Numbered from the stretch's first letter, positions 19,410 through 24,819 are shown. The stretch is DNA of 64,000 nt from Vulcanimicrobiota bacterium (GCA_963812135.1 CAWETU010000001.1:640001-704000); one strand, 5' to 3'. The notes: generated by a model from the letters alone, not told the origin. Numbers and translations: made by a program.

Positions 19410-20339
19410 CTAACTCGCCTTTGACCTGAAGAAGTCGATCGTCGACGCGATTCCCTCTTTTAGGCTGACGGCAGGCTCCCAGCCGAGGACCGTCTTCGCT
19501 TTTTCAATCTCGAACACGCAGGTCCGGATGTCGCCGGCCCGTTTCGGCGCGGGCTGGACGGGCACGTCGCGCCCGACGACGCCGGCGATCGCCGCATGCA
19601 GTTGGTTGACGGAGGTGCCAATGCCGTTGCCGATGTTGATCGCTTCGCCATCGGCAGCCGTCAGCGCGGCGATGTTGGCGCGGGCGATGTCGCCGACGTA
19701 GACGTAGTCCTTTTGCTGCTCGCCATCCCAGTCGATGCGGATCGGCTTGCCGGCGAGGATACGCGACGCGAAGATCGCGATGACGCCCGCTTCGCCGCTC
19801 GGGTCTTGACGCGGTCCGTAGACGTTGCCGTAGCGCAGCGCGGTGTACGCGGGTCCACCGGCGGAAGCGAAATACCGCAGGTAGTGCTCGCCGACCATTT
19901 TCGTGATGCCATAGGGCGATTCGGGGCGCTGCGGGTGTGCCTCATCGATGGGCATGTACATCGGCGTGCCATAGGTGGCGGCTGACGAAGCGTAAATGAT
20001 CTTGCGCGCGCCCGAGTCCACGCTGCGCTGCACGACGTTGATCAGGCCGCGGACGTTGACATCCGCATCGTAGAGCGGATCCTTCGCGGACAACGCCACG
20101 CTGTGCTGTGCGGCGTGATGGCTGACCAGCTCCGGTTTGAACGAGGCGAAGATGTCCGCCAGGCTGGGGTCGCGGATGTCGCGCAGGAAGAATTGGGCGT
20201 TTGGATTGAGGTTTGCGCGCGTGCCGCCGCCGTGTTCCCACAGGCTGTCGATCACGCCGACATCATGCCCGGCGGCCACGAGCGCATCGACGATATGCGA
20301 GCCGATGAAGCCCGCGCCACCGGTGACGAGGATGCGCAA
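19410..20339 (-). CDS. NAD-dependent epimerase/dehydratase (UDP-glucose 4-epimerase-like)
   Basis: TGGAGFIGSH, YGITK, RYGNVYGPRQ. Confidence 0.92.
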   Translation of the reverse strand: MRILVTGGAGFIGSHIVDALVAAGHDVGVIDSLWEHGGGTRANLNPNAQFFLRDIRDPSLADIFASFKPELVSHHAAQHSVALSAKDPLYDADVNVRGLINVVQRSVDSGARKIIYASSAATYGTPMYMPIDEAHPQRPESPYGITKMVGEHYLRYFASAGGPAYTALRYGNVYGPRQDPSGEAGVIAIFASRILAGKPIRIDWDGEQQKDYVYVGDIARANIAALTAADGEAINIGNGIGTSVNQLHAAIAGVVGRDVPVQPAPKRAGDIRTCVFEIEKAKTVLGWEPAVSLKEGIASTIDFFRSKAS

Positions 20340-20349
20340 AAGGGTGCGC

Positions 20350-20418
20350 CTAGAGCGTCAAGTGACCGCTGACCAACAATAGGATCAGCACCAGAACGAC
20401 GATGATGAGCGTCGTCAT
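20350..20418 (-). CDS. 22-aa hydrophobic GHLxL micropeptide (MTTLIIVVLVLILLLVSGHLTL)
   Basis: Manual translation; GGGAG RBS; homologous to three other sORFs in the window. Confidence 0.8.
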   Translation of the reverse strand: MTTLIIVVLVLILLLVSGHLTL

Positions 20419-20461
20419 GTCAGATCACTCCCTTCCAATGTAGCAGCGCAATGCGAACGGT

Positions 20462-20533
20462 TTAGAGGTGCAGATGGCCTGCGACCGCCAGCAGTATGAG
20501 CACCAGTAAGATGATGATCACCGCTGTACTCAT
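20462..20533 (-). CDS. 23-aa hydrophobic GHLxL micropeptide (MSTAVIIILLVLILLAVAGHLHL)
   Basis: Manual translation; AAAGG/AAGG RBS-like; paralog family. Confidence 0.8.
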   Translation of the reverse strand: MSTAVIIILLVLILLAVAGHLHL

Positions 20534-20589
20534 GGGACCTTGCCTTTCAGAACCGAACGGATAGATGGTCTGGACTTAGCCGTTCCCTA

Positions 20590-20604
20590 TCGAACATATG
20601 TTTC
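20590..20604. promoter_or_regulatory. Candidate LexA (GAAC-N4-GTTC type) box
   Basis: TCGAAC-ATAT-GTTTC between the divergent peptide pair and comEC. Confidence 0.55.
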
Positions 20605-20661
20605 CTTTGGCGCTTGAGACCCGCTGCTTGACGCCGCAAGCGGTCGCGTGATGCAGTCTAG

Positions 20662-23082
20662 GTGGTGCAGTCGCTCGACGTCCACGCGCGCGCGCATGTG
20701 CTCGCGATCGCGTTCACGTCGTACTCGCTTGGCGTTCTGGTCGTCACGGGCAATTGCTCGTTTTGGCTGCTCGGCGCGCTCGTCGCCGTTGCGCTTGCCT
20801 GTCCAGTAAGTCGCCGGATCATCGCGATCGCGCTCGCGTGCGTCACGGCGGGCGCGGTCGCCGGCCATCTCGCCGTCCTTGCTCGCGCGCGATCGGATCT
20901 TGGCGCGGTGGACGGCCACCACGTCACCTGTGTCGTCGAGACGGTCGAGCGGCCGCATCCGTCGGCCAACGGCGTTTCGGTTCGCGCGCGAATCGTGGAC
21001 GTCACGTCCGCCGGGCGCGATGAAGCCCGTTTGTTGCGAGATCGTGTGGCGCTGCTTGAATTGCCGGCTGACGCCGCCGCGGGGAGCGACCTCGCCGGCG
21101 AACGGCTGCGCATACGCGCTCGAATCGACGCACCCGCCGGCGTCCGCAACGAGGGTGAGCCGGCGGAGCGCGATCAGCTCGCGGACCAAGGCGTATCGGT
21201 CATTCTGGACGTTCATCGGGCGCGCGACACGCAATTGCTGGGAAGCGCCGGCGGATGGAGCGCGTGGTGGGCCAGGACGCGCAGCCGATTTTCAGACGCG
21301 GTCGAGTCGCGGCTTCCGCCGCTGCCGGCGACGGTGCTCGAAGGCGTGCTGTGGGGCGACCGCGGCAATCTGCCCGCGGCTCTGCGCCAAGAATTCGCCG
21401 ACACGGGCACGGTACACGTGTTGACGACGGCCGGCTTACATCTTGGCATCATGGCCGCACTGGTCGCCGCGCTTCTCATGCAGACGCCGATGCCGCGGAC
21501 TGCGCGAGCCATTGTCGTCGTCGCCGCCGCCTGGGCGTACGCGGCACTCGCCGGGCTGCATCTGCCGACGCTGCGCGCGGCGACCATGCTCACGGTCGGC
21601 GTCATCGCGTTTGAGAGCGGCCGGGCGCGCACCGCTTCAGCGGTGTTGGCGGCGGCGGCTTTGGCGGTCACTTTGCCCCACCCGCTCGTCTTGCTGTCGG
21701 CTTCCTTTTCTATGTCGTTTGCGTGCGTCGGCGGGATCGCGCTGCTGAGTCCGGCGCTCGCGGCGCTCGGGGTACGCGAGGGTTTGTGGGGTCCGCGTTG
21801 GTCGGCCGAGCTCATCCGGACCGGAGTGTCCGTGCAGCTCGGGCTCGCACCGCTGCAGGCGCTGTACTTCAACGCGTTCACGCCATACGCGGTTGCCGCA
21901 AATCTGGTCGTCGTGCCCATGGTCGGGTTCGTGATGGCCGCGGGCACGGCGTATGCTGCTGTGGCGATGCTCGCGCCGGGGCTCGCGTGGCCGTTCTCCA
22001 ATATCACGTGGTGGGCTTTGACGTTTATGATCGGCGCGGTCGAGCGGTTCGCGTCGTTGCCGGGCGCGCACGTCGACATCCCGCCGCCAACGCATGCGTT
22101 CATCGTGCTGTATTGGATCGCGCTCGCGGCCCTCGCGTGGGCGGCGCACAGGCAGGTACGTGCGGACCGCATCTTTGTAGGCAGCGCCGCGGCAATCGTC
22201 GTGCTTGCAACGGTCTACTGCGTGCCCGGCATCGAGGCCGCGCTCGACCGCCGCTTGCACCTCGATGCGATCGACGTCGGCCAAGCCGACTGCCTGCTCG
22301 TGCGCGCTCCCGGCATGCATGCGATGCTTGTGGACGGCGGTGGCAAACTCGAACGCTCCGGCGGTGGTGTCGTGGCGCAGCCGATCGGCGATCGGATCGC
22401 GACGCGCACGGTCATGCCGTTCTTGCTGCGTCACTGGGTGCTCCACTTGGACGCCGTGGTGCTCACCCATCCACACGGCGATCACGCCGGCGGGCTGCCG
22501 GTCATCCTGTCGCGAGAACGGGTGGACGCGCTCTACGACTCCGCGCAACTTTACGGCGGTCCTGCCTATCAGCGCGCGCTCGACGTCGTGCGCGCGCGCC
22601 ACATCGCATGGCGCCGTGCGGTGCGCGGCAAGTCGTTTGATCTCAGCCCGCAAACTCACGTGCGCATCCTGGCCCCCGAACTGCCACTCATCACCGGAAC
22701 ATCCTCGGATATCAACAACAACTCGGTGGTGCTGCGCGTCGAGTTCGGCGCAACCGCGCTGCTGCTCACTGGCGACGCGCAATCCGAAGCGGAGGCCCGA
22801 TTGCTTGGACATGGCGGCGCTGATCTGCGCGCCGATGTCCTCAAGGTCGGACATCACGGCTCCGCCTATTCGAGCACGCCGGAATTCCTCGCCGCCGTTC
22901 GCCCGAGAGCCGCGATCATCTCATGCGGCAGGCACAACGTGTTCGGCCACCCAAGCCCGCAGACGCTGGACGCACTTCGAAACGCGGGTGCGACGATATA
23001 TCGCACGGACAGAGACGGCGGCATTTCGATCGACACCGACGGCGCGATCATCCAGGCGTCGACGTCCGCGCCAACGCACTAA
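20662..23082 (+). CDS. comEC: DNA internalization competence protein ComEC/Rec2
   Basis: GTVHVLTTAGLH, SASFSMSF, DVGQAD, LTHPHGDHAGG, NNNSVV, LLTGD, LKVGHHGS, FGHP, RTD.DG. Confidence 0.95.
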   Translation: MVQSLDVHARAHVLAIAFTSYSLGVLVVTGNCSFWLLGALVAVALACPVSRRIIAIALACVTAGAVAGHLAVLARARSDLGAVDGHHVTCVVETVERPHPSANGVSVRARIVDVTSAGRDEARLLRDRVALLELPADAAAGSDLAGERLRIRARIDAPAGVRNEGEPAERDQLADQGVSVILDVHRARDTQLLGSAGGWSAWWARTRSRFSDAVESRLPPLPATVLEGVLWGDRGNLPAALRQEFADTGTVHVLTTAGLHLGIMAALVAALLMQTPMPRTARAIVVVAAAWAYAALAGLHLPTLRAATMLTVGVIAFESGRARTASAVLAAAALAVTLPHPLVLLSASFSMSFACVGGIALLSPALAALGVREGLWGPRWSAELIRTGVSVQLGLAPLQALYFNAFTPYAVAANLVVVPMVGFVMAAGTAYAAVAMLAPGLAWPFSNITWWALTFMIGAVERFASLPGAHVDIPPPTHAFIVLYWIALAALAWAAHRQVRADRIFVGSAAAIVVLATVYCVPGIEAALDRRLHLDAIDVGQADCLLVRAPGMHAMLVDGGGKLERSGGGVVAQPIGDRIATRTVMPFLLRHWVLHLDAVVLTHPHGDHAGGLPVILSRERVDALYDSAQLYGGPAYQRALDVVRARHIAWRRAVRGKSFDLSPQTHVRILAPELPLITGTSSDINNNSVVLRVEFGATALLLTGDAQSEAEARLLGHGGADLRADVLKVGHHGSAYSSTPEFLAAVRPRAAIISCGRHNVFGHPSPQTLDALRNAGATIYRTDRDGGISIDTDGAIIQASTSAPTH

Positions 23083-23101
23083 GAAGAAGGATCGTGGGAG
23101 C

Positions 23102-24244
23102 GTGCCGACACGCATCGTGGTGTTGGGTGCCGGTTTCGGCGGACTCGAGCTGACGACGATCCTTTCCGACGCACTCGGCGACGCGCTCGACCTCGTGCTC
23201 ATCGACAAAAGCGACGCGTTCGTCTTCGGGTTTTCAAAGCTGGACCTGATGTTCGGACGCTCCGGACTCGCACAGGTGCGTCACCCATACCGCGGCGTCG
23301 TCAAACCGGGTGTGCGCTTCGTCCAGTCGACGGTGCGCTCAATCGACGCGTCCGCGCGGCGCGTGAAAACCGATGCGGGCACGTTCGACGCCGACGTTCT
23401 CGTGGTGGCTCTCGGTGCGGACTACGACGTGGCGGCGACGCCCGGGCTCTCCCAAGGCGGCAACGAGTTCTACTCGGTCGCTGGAGCGGACGCGTTACGC
23501 GAAGTGCTGCCGCGATTCGAACGCGGCGCGGCGATCATCGGCGTGACCTCGACGCCATTCAAGTGTCCACCGGCGCCGAGCGAGGCGGCGTTTCTGCTGC
23601 ATGACTACCTCACCGCGCTCGGCCGGCGCTCGGCCACGGAGATCTCGGTGGTGATCCCGTTCGGCAGGCCCGTGCCGCCCTCACCCGATACCTCAAAGGC
23701 GATTCTCGAAGGGTTCAAGGAGCGCGGCATCCGATGGGTCCCCGAGCGCGAAGTTCGCGCTCTCGATGCGGGTCGCAAAGTTGCGGTGCTTGATGACGGA
23801 ACCGAAATGCCGTACGACTTATTCCTCGGCGTGCCCGTCCACCGAGTGCCTGCGGTGGTCGAGGAATCCGGGCTTGCCGTCGACGGCTGGGTACCGGTGA
23901 ATCCGAGAACGCTCGAGACGAAATTCCCGGGCGTCTACGCGGTCGGCGATGTCGCGCTCGTCGGCACGCCGAAGGCGGGCGTCTTCTCCGAACGGCAGGC
24001 TCGGGTGGTGGCGGCCGAAATCCTCGCGCGGGTGCGCGGCGGACCTTCGCCGGCACACTATGACGGCACAGGTGCCTGCTACATCGAGTTCGGAAAGGGC
24101 GTCGTCGGTCGCGTCGTCGTCGATTTTTTCAGTGGCCCCGAACCAACCGGCACGTTCGAGGAGCCATCCGCAGCTCTCTCCGCCGACAAGACGGAGTTCG
24201 GCACGAGCCGGGTTGCGCGCTGGTTCTCGGGAGGTACAACGTAG
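23102..24244 (+). CDS. FAD/NAD(P)-dependent oxidoreductase, sulfide:quinone reductase-like
   Basis: VLGAGFGG, VALGA, FKCPPAPSE, VYAVGD, PKAGVF, GACYIEFG. Confidence 0.85.
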   Translation: MPTRIVVLGAGFGGLELTTILSDALGDALDLVLIDKSDAFVFGFSKLDLMFGRSGLAQVRHPYRGVVKPGVRFVQSTVRSIDASARRVKTDAGTFDADVLVVALGADYDVAATPGLSQGGNEFYSVAGADALREVLPRFERGAAIIGVTSTPFKCPPAPSEAAFLLHDYLTALGRRSATEISVVIPFGRPVPPSPDTSKAILEGFKERGIRWVPEREVRALDAGRKVAVLDDGTEMPYDLFLGVPVHRVPAVVEESGLAVDGWVPVNPRTLETKFPGVYAVGDVALVGTPKAGVFSERQARVVAAEILARVRGGPSPAHYDGTGACYIEFGKGVVGRVVVDFFSGPEPTGTFEEPSAALSADKTEFGTSRVARWFSGGTT

Positions 24245-24493
24245 ATGCGCTATCTCGGCCTGCTCCTGACCGCGCTGATCATCTGCGTGCTCGCGGTCAT
24301 CGCCTTCCGCTCGATGGGCCTCGCTCCCGGTGGCGACCAGAAGAACGCTGATTGGTATTATGCTCACCCGACCGAGCGCGCGGATCAGCTCAAGTGGTGC
24401 AACGCAAATCCGCAGCAACAAAACGGCGAGATCTGCCAAGCCGCAGTCGCCGCGCAGACGCGCGTCGACGTAGAGGCAGGCGCTCACAAATAA
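24245..24493 (+). CDS. Small exported protein resembling the EexN family
   Basis: N-terminal TM; WYYAHPTER..QLKWCNANP...EICQAA two-Cys pattern; GGAGG RBS. Confidence 0.6.
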   Translation: MRYLGLLLTALIICVLAVIAFRSMGLAPGGDQKNADWYYAHPTERADQLKWCNANPQQQNGEICQAAVAAQTRVDVEAGAHK

Positions 24494-24534
24494 AAAATCG
24501 GCCGCTCGCCGACGATGCCGATGAGCGGCCGATT
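24492..24534 (-). terminator. Intrinsic terminator between convergent genes
   Basis: AATCGGCCGCTC...GAGCGGCCGATT stem followed by a U-tract on the minus strand. Confidence 0.7.
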
Positions 24535-24554
24535 GGTATTGGTTCAGTCCTATC

Positions 24555-24623
24555 CTAGAGCTTGAGGTGTCCCGTGACCGCCAGCAGGATCAGGACGAGC
24601 ATCACGATGAGGAAAGCTTCCAC
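24555..24623 (-). CDS. 22-aa hydrophobic GHLxL micropeptide (MEAFLIVMLVLILLAVTGHLKL)
   Basis: GTG start with GGGAGG RBS; paralog family. Confidence 0.85.
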   Translation of the reverse strand: MEAFLIVMLVLILLAVTGHLKL

Positions 24624-24663
24624 TGGTCTACCTCCCGGCGAACGATCAATCGCCGGTATTCAT

Positions 24664-24690
24664 ATACCCGAAAAGGGCCACCGCCTAACT
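24664..24690 (-). promoter_or_regulatory. SigB/SigF-like promoter
   Basis: AGTTA-N16-GGGTAT upstream of the peptide starting at 24623. Confidence 0.5.
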
Positions 24691-24691
24691 C

Positions 24692-24763
24692 TCAGAGTTT
24701 GAGGTGACCAGTAACGGCCAATAGGATGAGGACGAGCAACACGATGATCACGGCAGTTTCCAT
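24692..24763 (-). CDS. 23-aa hydrophobic GHLxL micropeptide (METAVIIVLLVLILLAVTGHLKL)
   Basis: ATG with GAGGAGG RBS; paralog family. Confidence 0.85.
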   Translation of the reverse strand: METAVIIVLLVLILLAVTGHLKL

Positions 24764-24792
24764 GGGTGCGTGACCTCCTCTAACTTCGTATT

Positions 24793-24819
24793 ATACCCGT
24801 TCTTACCGCGCCTCAAACC
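24793..24819 (-). promoter_or_regulatory. SigB/SigF-like promoter
   Basis: GGTTT-N16-GGGTAT upstream of the peptide starting at 24763. Confidence 0.6.

Follow-up and report, generated by a model that had tools for sequence, protein, structure and literature searches.

What is encoded by the very short, hydrophobic reading frames that lie around comEC in a genome of the family Eremiobacteraceae (phylum Eremiobacterota, also termed WPS-2)? The stretch analysed, here called the window, comprises 64,000 nucleotides of Vulcanimicrobiota bacterium (GCA_963812135.1, CAWETU010000001.1:640001-704000). A first-pass annotation, made from the sequence alone, had placed four small open reading frames (sORFs) on its minus strand, starting at 20533, 20418, 24763 and 24623, and had read them as two tandem pairs of genes for single-helix membrane micropeptides; this placement has been confirmed in the sequence. 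Judged by their gene signals and their relatives, the four sORFs are almost certainly translated. The explanation that accounts best for the locus as a whole, with a probability of about 0.5 on the sequence evidence, is that the products are membrane peptides that bind a partner, and that one of the two pairs is SOS-inducible. The Eremiobacterota are abundant in soil and have hardly been cultured; to our knowledge, their membrane biology and stress responses are all but unexplored.

Pair 1 opens with sORF1 (20462..20533 with its TAA stop, 20465-20533 without it), which starts with ATG and specifies the 23-residue peptide MSTAVIIILLVLILLAVAGHLHL. It is followed, after a gap of 43 nt, by sORF2 (20350..20418 with its TAG stop, 20353-20418 without it), an ATG-started frame for the 22-residue peptide MTTLIIVVLVLILLLVSGHLTL, which is of the ‘B type’ (...LLLVSGHLTL). 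Pair 2 begins with sORF3 (24692..24763 with its TGA stop, 24695-24763 without it; ATG start), encoding the 23-residue peptide METAVIIVLLVLILLAVTGHLKL, and a 68-nt spacer separates it from sORF4 (24555..24623 with its TAG stop, 24558-24623 without it), which has a GTG start and encodes the 22-residue peptide MEAFLIVMLVLILLAVTGHLKL. Common to all four is the sequence LVLILLxVxGHLxL directly before the stop: each peptide has 16-17 consecutive apolar residues and then the tail G-H-L-(K/R/H/T)-L, in which the polar part is minimal. The ribosome binding sites described earlier were found again, with the Shine-Dalgarno (SD) sequences GGAGG, GGGAG and GGGAGG lying 7-10 nt 5′ of three of the starts (for sORF3, GGAGG at 10 nt) and AAGG only before sORF1. 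The earlier count of differences between the last 13 codons of sORF3 and sORF4, eight synonymous and none non-synonymous, was reproduced by eye. Searches of the genome (2.79 Mb, 64% G+C) with a regular expression and with a hidden Markov model (HMM) built from the four window peptides returned these four copies and no more; HMM E-values were 4.1e-11 for sORF1, 1.6e-12 for sORF3 and 1.6e-11 for sORF4.

Coding status and distribution of the family

The coding status of the sORFs was assessed on 41 copies from 15 genomes, comprising the window and 20 loci from 14 relatives. In all 41 the frame is open and the stop follows directly on G-H-L-x-L. A start codon (ATG, GTG or TTG) stands 22 codons before the stop in 28 copies, 23 codons before it in 11 and 26 codons before it in two, and within the 25 nt 5′ of its start every copy has a G/A-rich, SD-like stretch, mostly resembling GGAGG. 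The copies vary chiefly at third codon positions, with entropies of 0.86, 0.31 and 1.35 bits at positions 1, 2 and 3 respectively. The ratio of non-synonymous to synonymous differences per site (pN/pS), pooled over 820 pairs of copies in the dN/dS-type check that had been proposed, is 0.37, at a pS of 0.62 that is near saturation. The remaining five frames either carry stops in 22-40 of the 41 copies or have pN/pS values of 2.5-3.6. Within single genomes HMM E-values range from 1e-9 to 1e-12, and start, stop and SD are in register among relatives; this recurrence and these scores are far beyond chance. By the measure of third-position variation and pN/pS the peptides are under purifying selection, as had been argued from pair 2. 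The recurrence with gene signals in relatives likewise bears out the earlier view of a real multi-copy family of coding single-helix micropeptides. A non-coding RNA element or a chance reading frame was ruled out by the codon-position pattern together with the kept start, stop and SD.

At least four conserved subtypes can be distinguished in the family, and the genes are often paired as distinct, separately conserved types. All six sister genomes of the genus have an orthologue of sORF1 whose SD and start are in register, and B-type orthologues of sORF2 occupy the same position in all six as well as in G011, a genome of another genus. An orthologue of sORF4 was found in G005. The composition of pair 2 varies between sister genomes: in three of them the second gene is of a different subtype (MLTAILVIVALIFL..SGHLKL), and two have a single gene at the site. 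Moreover, sORF4 is nearer to sORF3 (77% identity) than to sORF2 (14 of 22 residues). The suggestion that a two-gene unit had been duplicated is not upheld by these comparisons, and separate tandem duplications fit better.

The family is confined to the Eremiobacteraceae, an uncultured soil lineage. A first HMM survey gave a match in 23 of 24 genomes of the same family, and two partial, chance-level matches only (E 0.3 and 0.83) among 16 genomes of neighbouring families. Of 400 genomes sampled evenly across the phylum, 29 are Eremiobacteraceae, and 28 of these were positive, the one miss being a genome that is 81% complete; none of the 371 genomes from the 20 other families had a match. If three unpublished positives (G010, G013 and G016) are set aside, 25 of 26 remain. 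Relatives have one to six HMM matches per genome at E up to 10, some of them weak, and many genomes are single-copy. The search for further copies that had been advised thus ends with four in this genome and a family that is near-universal in the Eremiobacteraceae.

A wider scan was made with a degenerate DNA pattern on one genome for each of 185,579 species. The form of the pattern that was scanned matches 40 of the 41 known copies, as it requires GTN at the -7 codon, which specifies Ile in one copy; a 13-base form matched 41/41. The scan returned 92 matches at 79 loci. By count, 57 of the matches are full members of the family; the other 35, from unrelated frames, are alike in the last few residues only. 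The records of the 57 members are titled Vulcanimicrobiota, Eremiobacterota or Eremiobacteraeota, Eremiobacteraceae or Ca. Eremiobacter antarcticus, or are metagenome-assembled genomes (MAGs) of the same family under other titles; the exception is one record titled Ca. Acidiferrales, which was not matched to the family of the window. Ca. Eremiobacter antarcticus is placed by the NCBI taxonomy in Ca. Eremiobacteraceae, phylum Vulcanimicrobiota. In metagenome contigs at least 105 family members occur among the 144 matches listed. Viral contigs gave no match to the DNA pattern, and a phage or mobile origin was rejected on this ground.

Full members are also held by MAG records titled Proteobacteria, Ca. 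Binatus, Ca. Acidiferrales or ‘unidentified bacterium’, most of which were placed in the family of the window (loci L043, L044, L049, L052, L055, L058, L060, L072, L073, L083, L086, L097, L113 and L114). The micro-gene can therefore serve as a compact marker for Eremiobacteraceae contigs, and it flags records that are probably mislabelled.

The first-pass annotation had not recognized the family, and the searches agree. No significant match was found in Pfam or NCBIfam, where the best were PsbN (E 0.44-0.71) and SPAR (E 1.1), far under the cut-offs. PADLOC gave no matches, PDB sequences none at E up to 10, and PHROGs weak matches only (best E 0.023). The exact peptides, ten out of ten, are missing from a collection of about 15 billion proteins. 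When the 37-aa stop-to-stop frame of sORF1 was compared by phmmer with 1.84 billion representatives, two matches were returned. One (P0001) is a 44-aa, over-extended call of an sORF1 orthologue and is the sole database relative; the other is a repeat protein that aligns with the non-coding part of the query only. Rfam at permissive E gave nothing relevant around the sORFs in the window and at the loci of 13 relatives, and full-text searches of the literature turned up no paper linking Eremiobacterota or Eremiobacteraceae with small proteins. Named families thus gave no significant match, global smORF catalogues lying outside the search and possibly holding the peptides as an unnamed cluster. 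The family is a previously unannotated one, yet of a kind already known, that of small hydrophobic bacterial membrane proteins, SOS-induced ones included. The micro-gene is specific to the Eremiobacteraceae and near-universal in them, and annotation pipelines have failed to call it correctly. The ATG start of P0001 falls inside the LexA box described below (..CATATGTTCGAT.. read as M-F-D).

A LexA box and the organization of the locus

The system had been proposed to be stress-regulated, and some evidence of this now exists for pair 1 only; pair 2 and the other genera show background scores for a LexA box. Ahead of sORF1 a LexA operator of the Cheo type is predicted at 20591..20604, reading GAAACATATGTTCG on the minus strand and CGAACATATGTTTC on the plus strand. 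Its centre lies 64 nt from the ATG of sORF1 and 64 nt from the GTG of comEC, which is divergent from pair 1. An alignment of the comEC/sORF1 spacer (128 bp in the window) from seven genomes of the genus contains one invariant block, GAAAC(A/G)TATGTTCGAT, and the box is kept in all seven. From its sequence and conservation, LexA probably controls pair 1. Between the box and the SD of sORF1 (window 20534-20590, minus strand) there is a short hairpin, which is present at the same place in L021-L026 with a sequence that differs from genome to genome (CCGTTC..GAACGG, GTCCGTC..GACGGGC, AGACAG..CTGTCT); it may form a 5′ stem-loop of the mRNA.

The sequence AACATATGTT occurs three times in the genome, at pair 1, upstream of lexA and upstream of an imuA-like gene. 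The lexA copy lies about 200 nt before the LexA DNA-binding domain, with a second lexA box 58 nt further on, and the RecA-fold imuA-like gene is preceded by a perfect ATCGAACATATGTTCGAT. Further top-scoring boxes stand at the 5′ ends of genes for a dnaE2-like polymerase, a dinG-like helicase and ku. At the threshold used there are 67 sites, while a control on the reversed genome has 37, and weight can therefore be given to the best sites alone; the box of pair 1 ties with the ku and dnaE2-like sites. The boxes of these SOS genes resemble CGAACATATGTTCG and lie at C1:705473-705544 (just past the end of the window), C1:1770941, C1:1670341, C1:2049193 and C1:1202086; they provide an initial outline of the LexA regulon in this lineage. 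Elsewhere in the family scores stay at background apart from isolated candidates, an example being CAAACCGCTGTTCG, which precedes a 27-aa copy in L093 by 65 nt.

Directly 3′ of sORF2 lies a gene for a GalE-like NAD-dependent sugar epimerase/dehydratase (19410..20339, minus strand; Pfam Epimerase, E 8e-55), whose score of 182.8 is under the NCBIfam GalE cut-off of 262.3. It has a TTG start and no SD of its own, and the stop of sORF2 is 10 nt before that start. On the other side, comEC/rec2 (20662..23082, plus strand) is identified by the Pfam domains Competence, Lactamase_B and DUF4131 and by TIGR00361 (248.7 against a cut-off of 190). The order comEC, divergent sORF or sORFs, epimerase was found by tblastn with the window proteins at every one of the 16 fetched loci that have both flanking genes, and leuS lies beyond the epimerase in most of these. 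In five genomes of the sister family, no hydrophobic sORF with an SD was found within 1.5 kb of the epimerase orthologue, and comEC stands beside that orthologue in three of the five. As the sister family keeps comEC and the epimerase without the sORF, the micro-gene looks like an innovation of the Eremiobacteraceae put into an older gene pair. The linkage to comEC that had been raised is a matter of position only, and it is the epimerase gene that shares the orientation of the sORFs.

The distance between peptide and epimerase genes differs across the family. In the genus of the window and in G011, the B-type peptide stop lies 7-10 nt before the epimerase start (TTG; GTG in G001), with no SD between them. 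Because of this short gap without an SD, translation of the epimerase in this genus appears to be coupled to that of the B-type peptide by termination and reinitiation. Genera that have only one sORF leave 57-72 nt here, and in those examples that were read the epimerase start has an SD-like stretch before it.

For pair 2, a -10-like motif, GGGTATAAT, is located at 24790..24798 (minus strand) and begins about 35 nt before the ATG of sORF3. A second such motif, GGGTATATG, lies at 24661..24669 (minus strand) within the sORF3-sORF4 spacer, and suggests that sORF4 has a promoter of its own. An equivalent motif (GGGTATAT/GGGTATAA) precedes the second gene of pair 2 in G002-G004. More widely, the motif GGTAnAww is present on the sense strand between -60 and -21 in 19 of 71 family regions. 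Pair 2 sits behind a short-chain dehydrogenase gene and ends at a strong intrinsic terminator (24491..24533, minus strand), in which an 11-bp stem, ATCGGCCGCTC...GAGCGGCCGAT, is followed by TTTTTT; the inner stem occupies 24513-24497 and the fold is worth -30 kcal/mol. Many stand-alone copies likewise have a GC-rich hairpin and a T-run soon after the stop. With a -10-like motif, SD, reading frame and terminator, the copies not linked to the epimerase look like self-contained micro-genes. In G005 and G006 (L025:4060-4100 and L026:3965-4003, plus strand), the SD of the first pair-2 gene lies within a perfect 9-bp palindrome, GCGACCTCCGGAGGTCGC, which could mask it; a palindrome of this type was not seen in the window's own copy.

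In other genera, the epimerase-linked sORF is preceded by a conserved leader of about 75 nt, GCGAGGAAC-N14-GGGAAaGAGtAAGTCCAG..C(A/G)(C/G)GTC, often followed by a T-run (loci L027, L036, L043, L074, L079, L086, L095, L096, L098 and L113 among them). It has no match among Rfam families. In the genus of the window, the LexA box occupies the left part of this leader block. A reading of the leader as a promoter for an extracytoplasmic function (ECF) sigma factor (GGAA[AC]-N16-18-xSGTY) was tried and set aside: it fits 9 of 24 only, against 0.23 expected in shuffled sequences. The block itself is real; its assignment to a sigma factor is not established.

What the peptides may do

In the mechanism proposed here, the four sORFs would give rise to 22-23-residue, single-pass inner-membrane peptides that are efficiently translated and abundant. 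That the peptides are membrane helices is likely. The apolar stretch would span the inner membrane and, following the positive-inside rule, the acidic or polar N-terminus (MD-, ME-, MT-) would lie outside, with the His-Lys/Arg tail at the cytoplasmic face. Their invariant Gly-His end would make contact with a conserved partner in the membrane or with another such peptide, and the peptides would act as sequence-specific accessory or regulatory subunits, not as unspecific membrane poisons; this choice of partner-binding subunits over toxins is a tentative one, held at a little under even odds. Copies linked to the epimerase would be read together with it and the others as separate micro-units. 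DNA damage would raise pair 1 in this genus and, by way of coupling, the epimerase, in parallel with the small SOS-induced membrane proteins SidA, DinQ and TisB. The sequence analysis itself shows that the frames are coding, where the family occurs, its synteny and gene signals, and the LexA box with its regulon. We infer the orientation, the binding of a partner, the choice of promoter that LexA controls and the translational coupling from the features described above.

Peptide identity is about 70-80% between genera whose LeuS identity is only about 60-75%. This near-constancy across divergent genera, together with the separately conserved subtypes, favours a sequence-specific contact, and a 22-residue helix kept to this degree over deep divergence provides a test case in which a specific binding partner is implied. 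KdpF, AcrZ, CydX and MgtS are single-helix peptides that are conserved through docking onto a specific membrane complex. This is the mode favoured for the present family; those peptides, however, are usually encoded in the operon or regulon of the partner, whereas here the only constant neighbour is an epimerase of soluble type.

Several observations weigh against partner-binding peptides with one SOS-inducible pair. The other genera and pair 2 are at background LexA score, and the SOS response cannot explain the whole family. The box is equidistant from both genes, so comEC may be its target instead of, or besides, the sORFs. A strict sigma-70 scan found no promoter at either pair, which makes the transcription starts guesses. 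The neighbours of the dispersed copies are heterogeneous, with no common partner among the 35 flanking frames scanned; they include a BNR/sortilin-like protein and a TonB-dependent receptor, a methyltransferase, RecR, trigger factor, FecR/DUF6600 and HflX. The residues L(-9), G(-5), H(-4), L(-3) and L(-1) are the same in all 41 copies, the invariance of GHLxL being partly built into the regular expression and the DNA pattern by which copies were found. A divergent member in G009 (L032:3097-3162, plus strand), found by HMM, ends in GHANL; Gly-His is thus the most constant feature, and the counts made by expression or pattern slightly overstate the invariance of the tail. Finally, the peptides are short, extremely hydrophobic, tandem or multi-copy, intergenic and unannotated, which are the marks by which type I toxins were sought in PMC2887945, and the antisense -10-like motif that is missing from all 71 family regions between -100 and +279 is a single motif, whose absence leaves room for an antisense or trans-acting RNA.

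Peptides of this type I kind (Ibs, TisB, DinQ) would depolarise the membrane and be held down by a small RNA, and SOS release of pair 1 would then lead to growth arrest or persistence. The Ibs toxins are 18-19 aa long. The peptides described here, all under 70 aa, have a predicted transmembrane stretch and a small polar C-terminus, with His and Lys/Arg in the C-terminal tail; they form two tandem pairs in the window, and they share with Ibs/Sib the size, the extreme hydrophobicity and the tandem and dispersed intergenic copies that escaped annotation, in line with the criteria of PMC2887945. Similarly, DinQ/AgrB and TisB/IstR-1 of Escherichia coli include LexA-regulated single-transmembrane peptides of less than 30 aa, and a LexA box lies upstream of pair 1 as it does for dinQ and tisB (PMC3567139); DinQ is reported there to influence the recombination that follows DNA transfer, a loose parallel to the place of the sORFs next to comEC. 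However, the antisense RNA signature that the earlier toxin or persister idea would lead one to expect was not found. Besides the missing antisense motif, the likeness between paralogues stops at the coding sequence, being 67-73% inside it, 48-60% in the flanks and 53-55% in shuffled sequence, whereas in an example from PMC2887945 the similarity of type I toxin paralogues runs past the coding region. Third codon positions vary freely, so no conserved element is hidden inside the reading frames, and none is seen on the opposite strand. Strong SDs near -10-like motifs point to short leaders, not to long structured ones. Furthermore, in contrast to DinQ/TisB and Ibs/Sib, the gene is near-core and syntenic across the family, very tightly kept in 10 genera, and some copies are read together with, and apparently even coupled to, a housekeeping-type epimerase. 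As nothing pointed to an antisense RNA, the case for a type I toxin is weakened, and we regard such a toxin as an unlikely account of the family.

A different role in the SOS response would be that of a division inhibitor. In Caulobacter, cleavage of LexA induces SidA, an inner-membrane protein of 29 aa whose target is FtsW (PMC4211646); by analogy, pair 1 would bind FtsW, FtsI or FtsN and pause septation during DNA repair. By description SidA resembles the family in being a very short single-helix membrane protein, and the LexA box before pair 1 recalls the LexA-dependent induction of sidA. The box before pair 1 is conserved in the genus, and small membrane-bound SOS checkpoint proteins are described as common. 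Yet the present family is multi-copy, epimerase-linked and mostly without a LexA box, and no connection with the divisome was seen. Neither pair 2 nor any copy from the nine other genera has the box, which limits this idea to pair 1 in one genus; the box may serve comEC instead; and at least some copies have a constitutive-looking -10 motif, where a constitutive division inhibitor would be harmful. It is accordingly rated as distinctly unlikely. That translation of the sORF would matter, and not its product, setting translation or transcription of the epimerase as an upstream frame or leader does, was considered very improbable. The sORF does stand directly before the epimerase at all 16 loci with both flanking genes, the B-type stop is 7-10 nt from an SD-less TTG start, and the frames contain many codons for Leu, Ile and Val, with leuS nearby. 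However, a leader should always have the regulated gene downstream in its transcript, which is true of the epimerase-adjacent copies only; stand-alone copies are closed by strong terminators and have no gene after them. It is also the amino-acid sequence that is kept, not composition alone, and neither an alternation of terminator and antiterminator nor an Rfam match was seen. Cytochrome b559 is built on two helices with a single His each. By analogy, two peptides (for example A and B) could ligate haem or a metal through their single His, which follows an invariant Gly in 41/41 copies and is kept with it in the GHANL member, and the frequent pairing of distinct, separately conserved subtypes would suit such a bridge. 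There is, however, no haem- or metal-handling gene in the conserved neighbourhood, many genomes are single-copy, and a search of PDB sequences gave no match, so that this analogy appears the most improbable of the readings considered. Somewhat broader, and still quite improbable, is the thought that homo- or hetero-oligomers mediated by Gly-His conduct protons or ions, or hold haem or a metal, as a minimal 22-residue channel or micro-cytochrome. If this were true, the oligomer would be made constitutively from some copies and switched by DNA damage from others, beside the ComEC uptake channel, and it would tune membrane energisation or dormancy in nutrient-starved soils.

Genes between comEC and pair 2

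Pair 2 lies beyond the 3′ end of comEC. The interval (23099-24493, plus strand) is taken up by a type III sulfide:quinone-reductase-like gene and an 82-aa reading frame, the latter with a weak match to EexN lipoproteins that is under the cut-off. The reductase-like gene adjoins comEC in G001 too, and in G005 and G006 pair 2 directly abuts the 3′ end of comEC.

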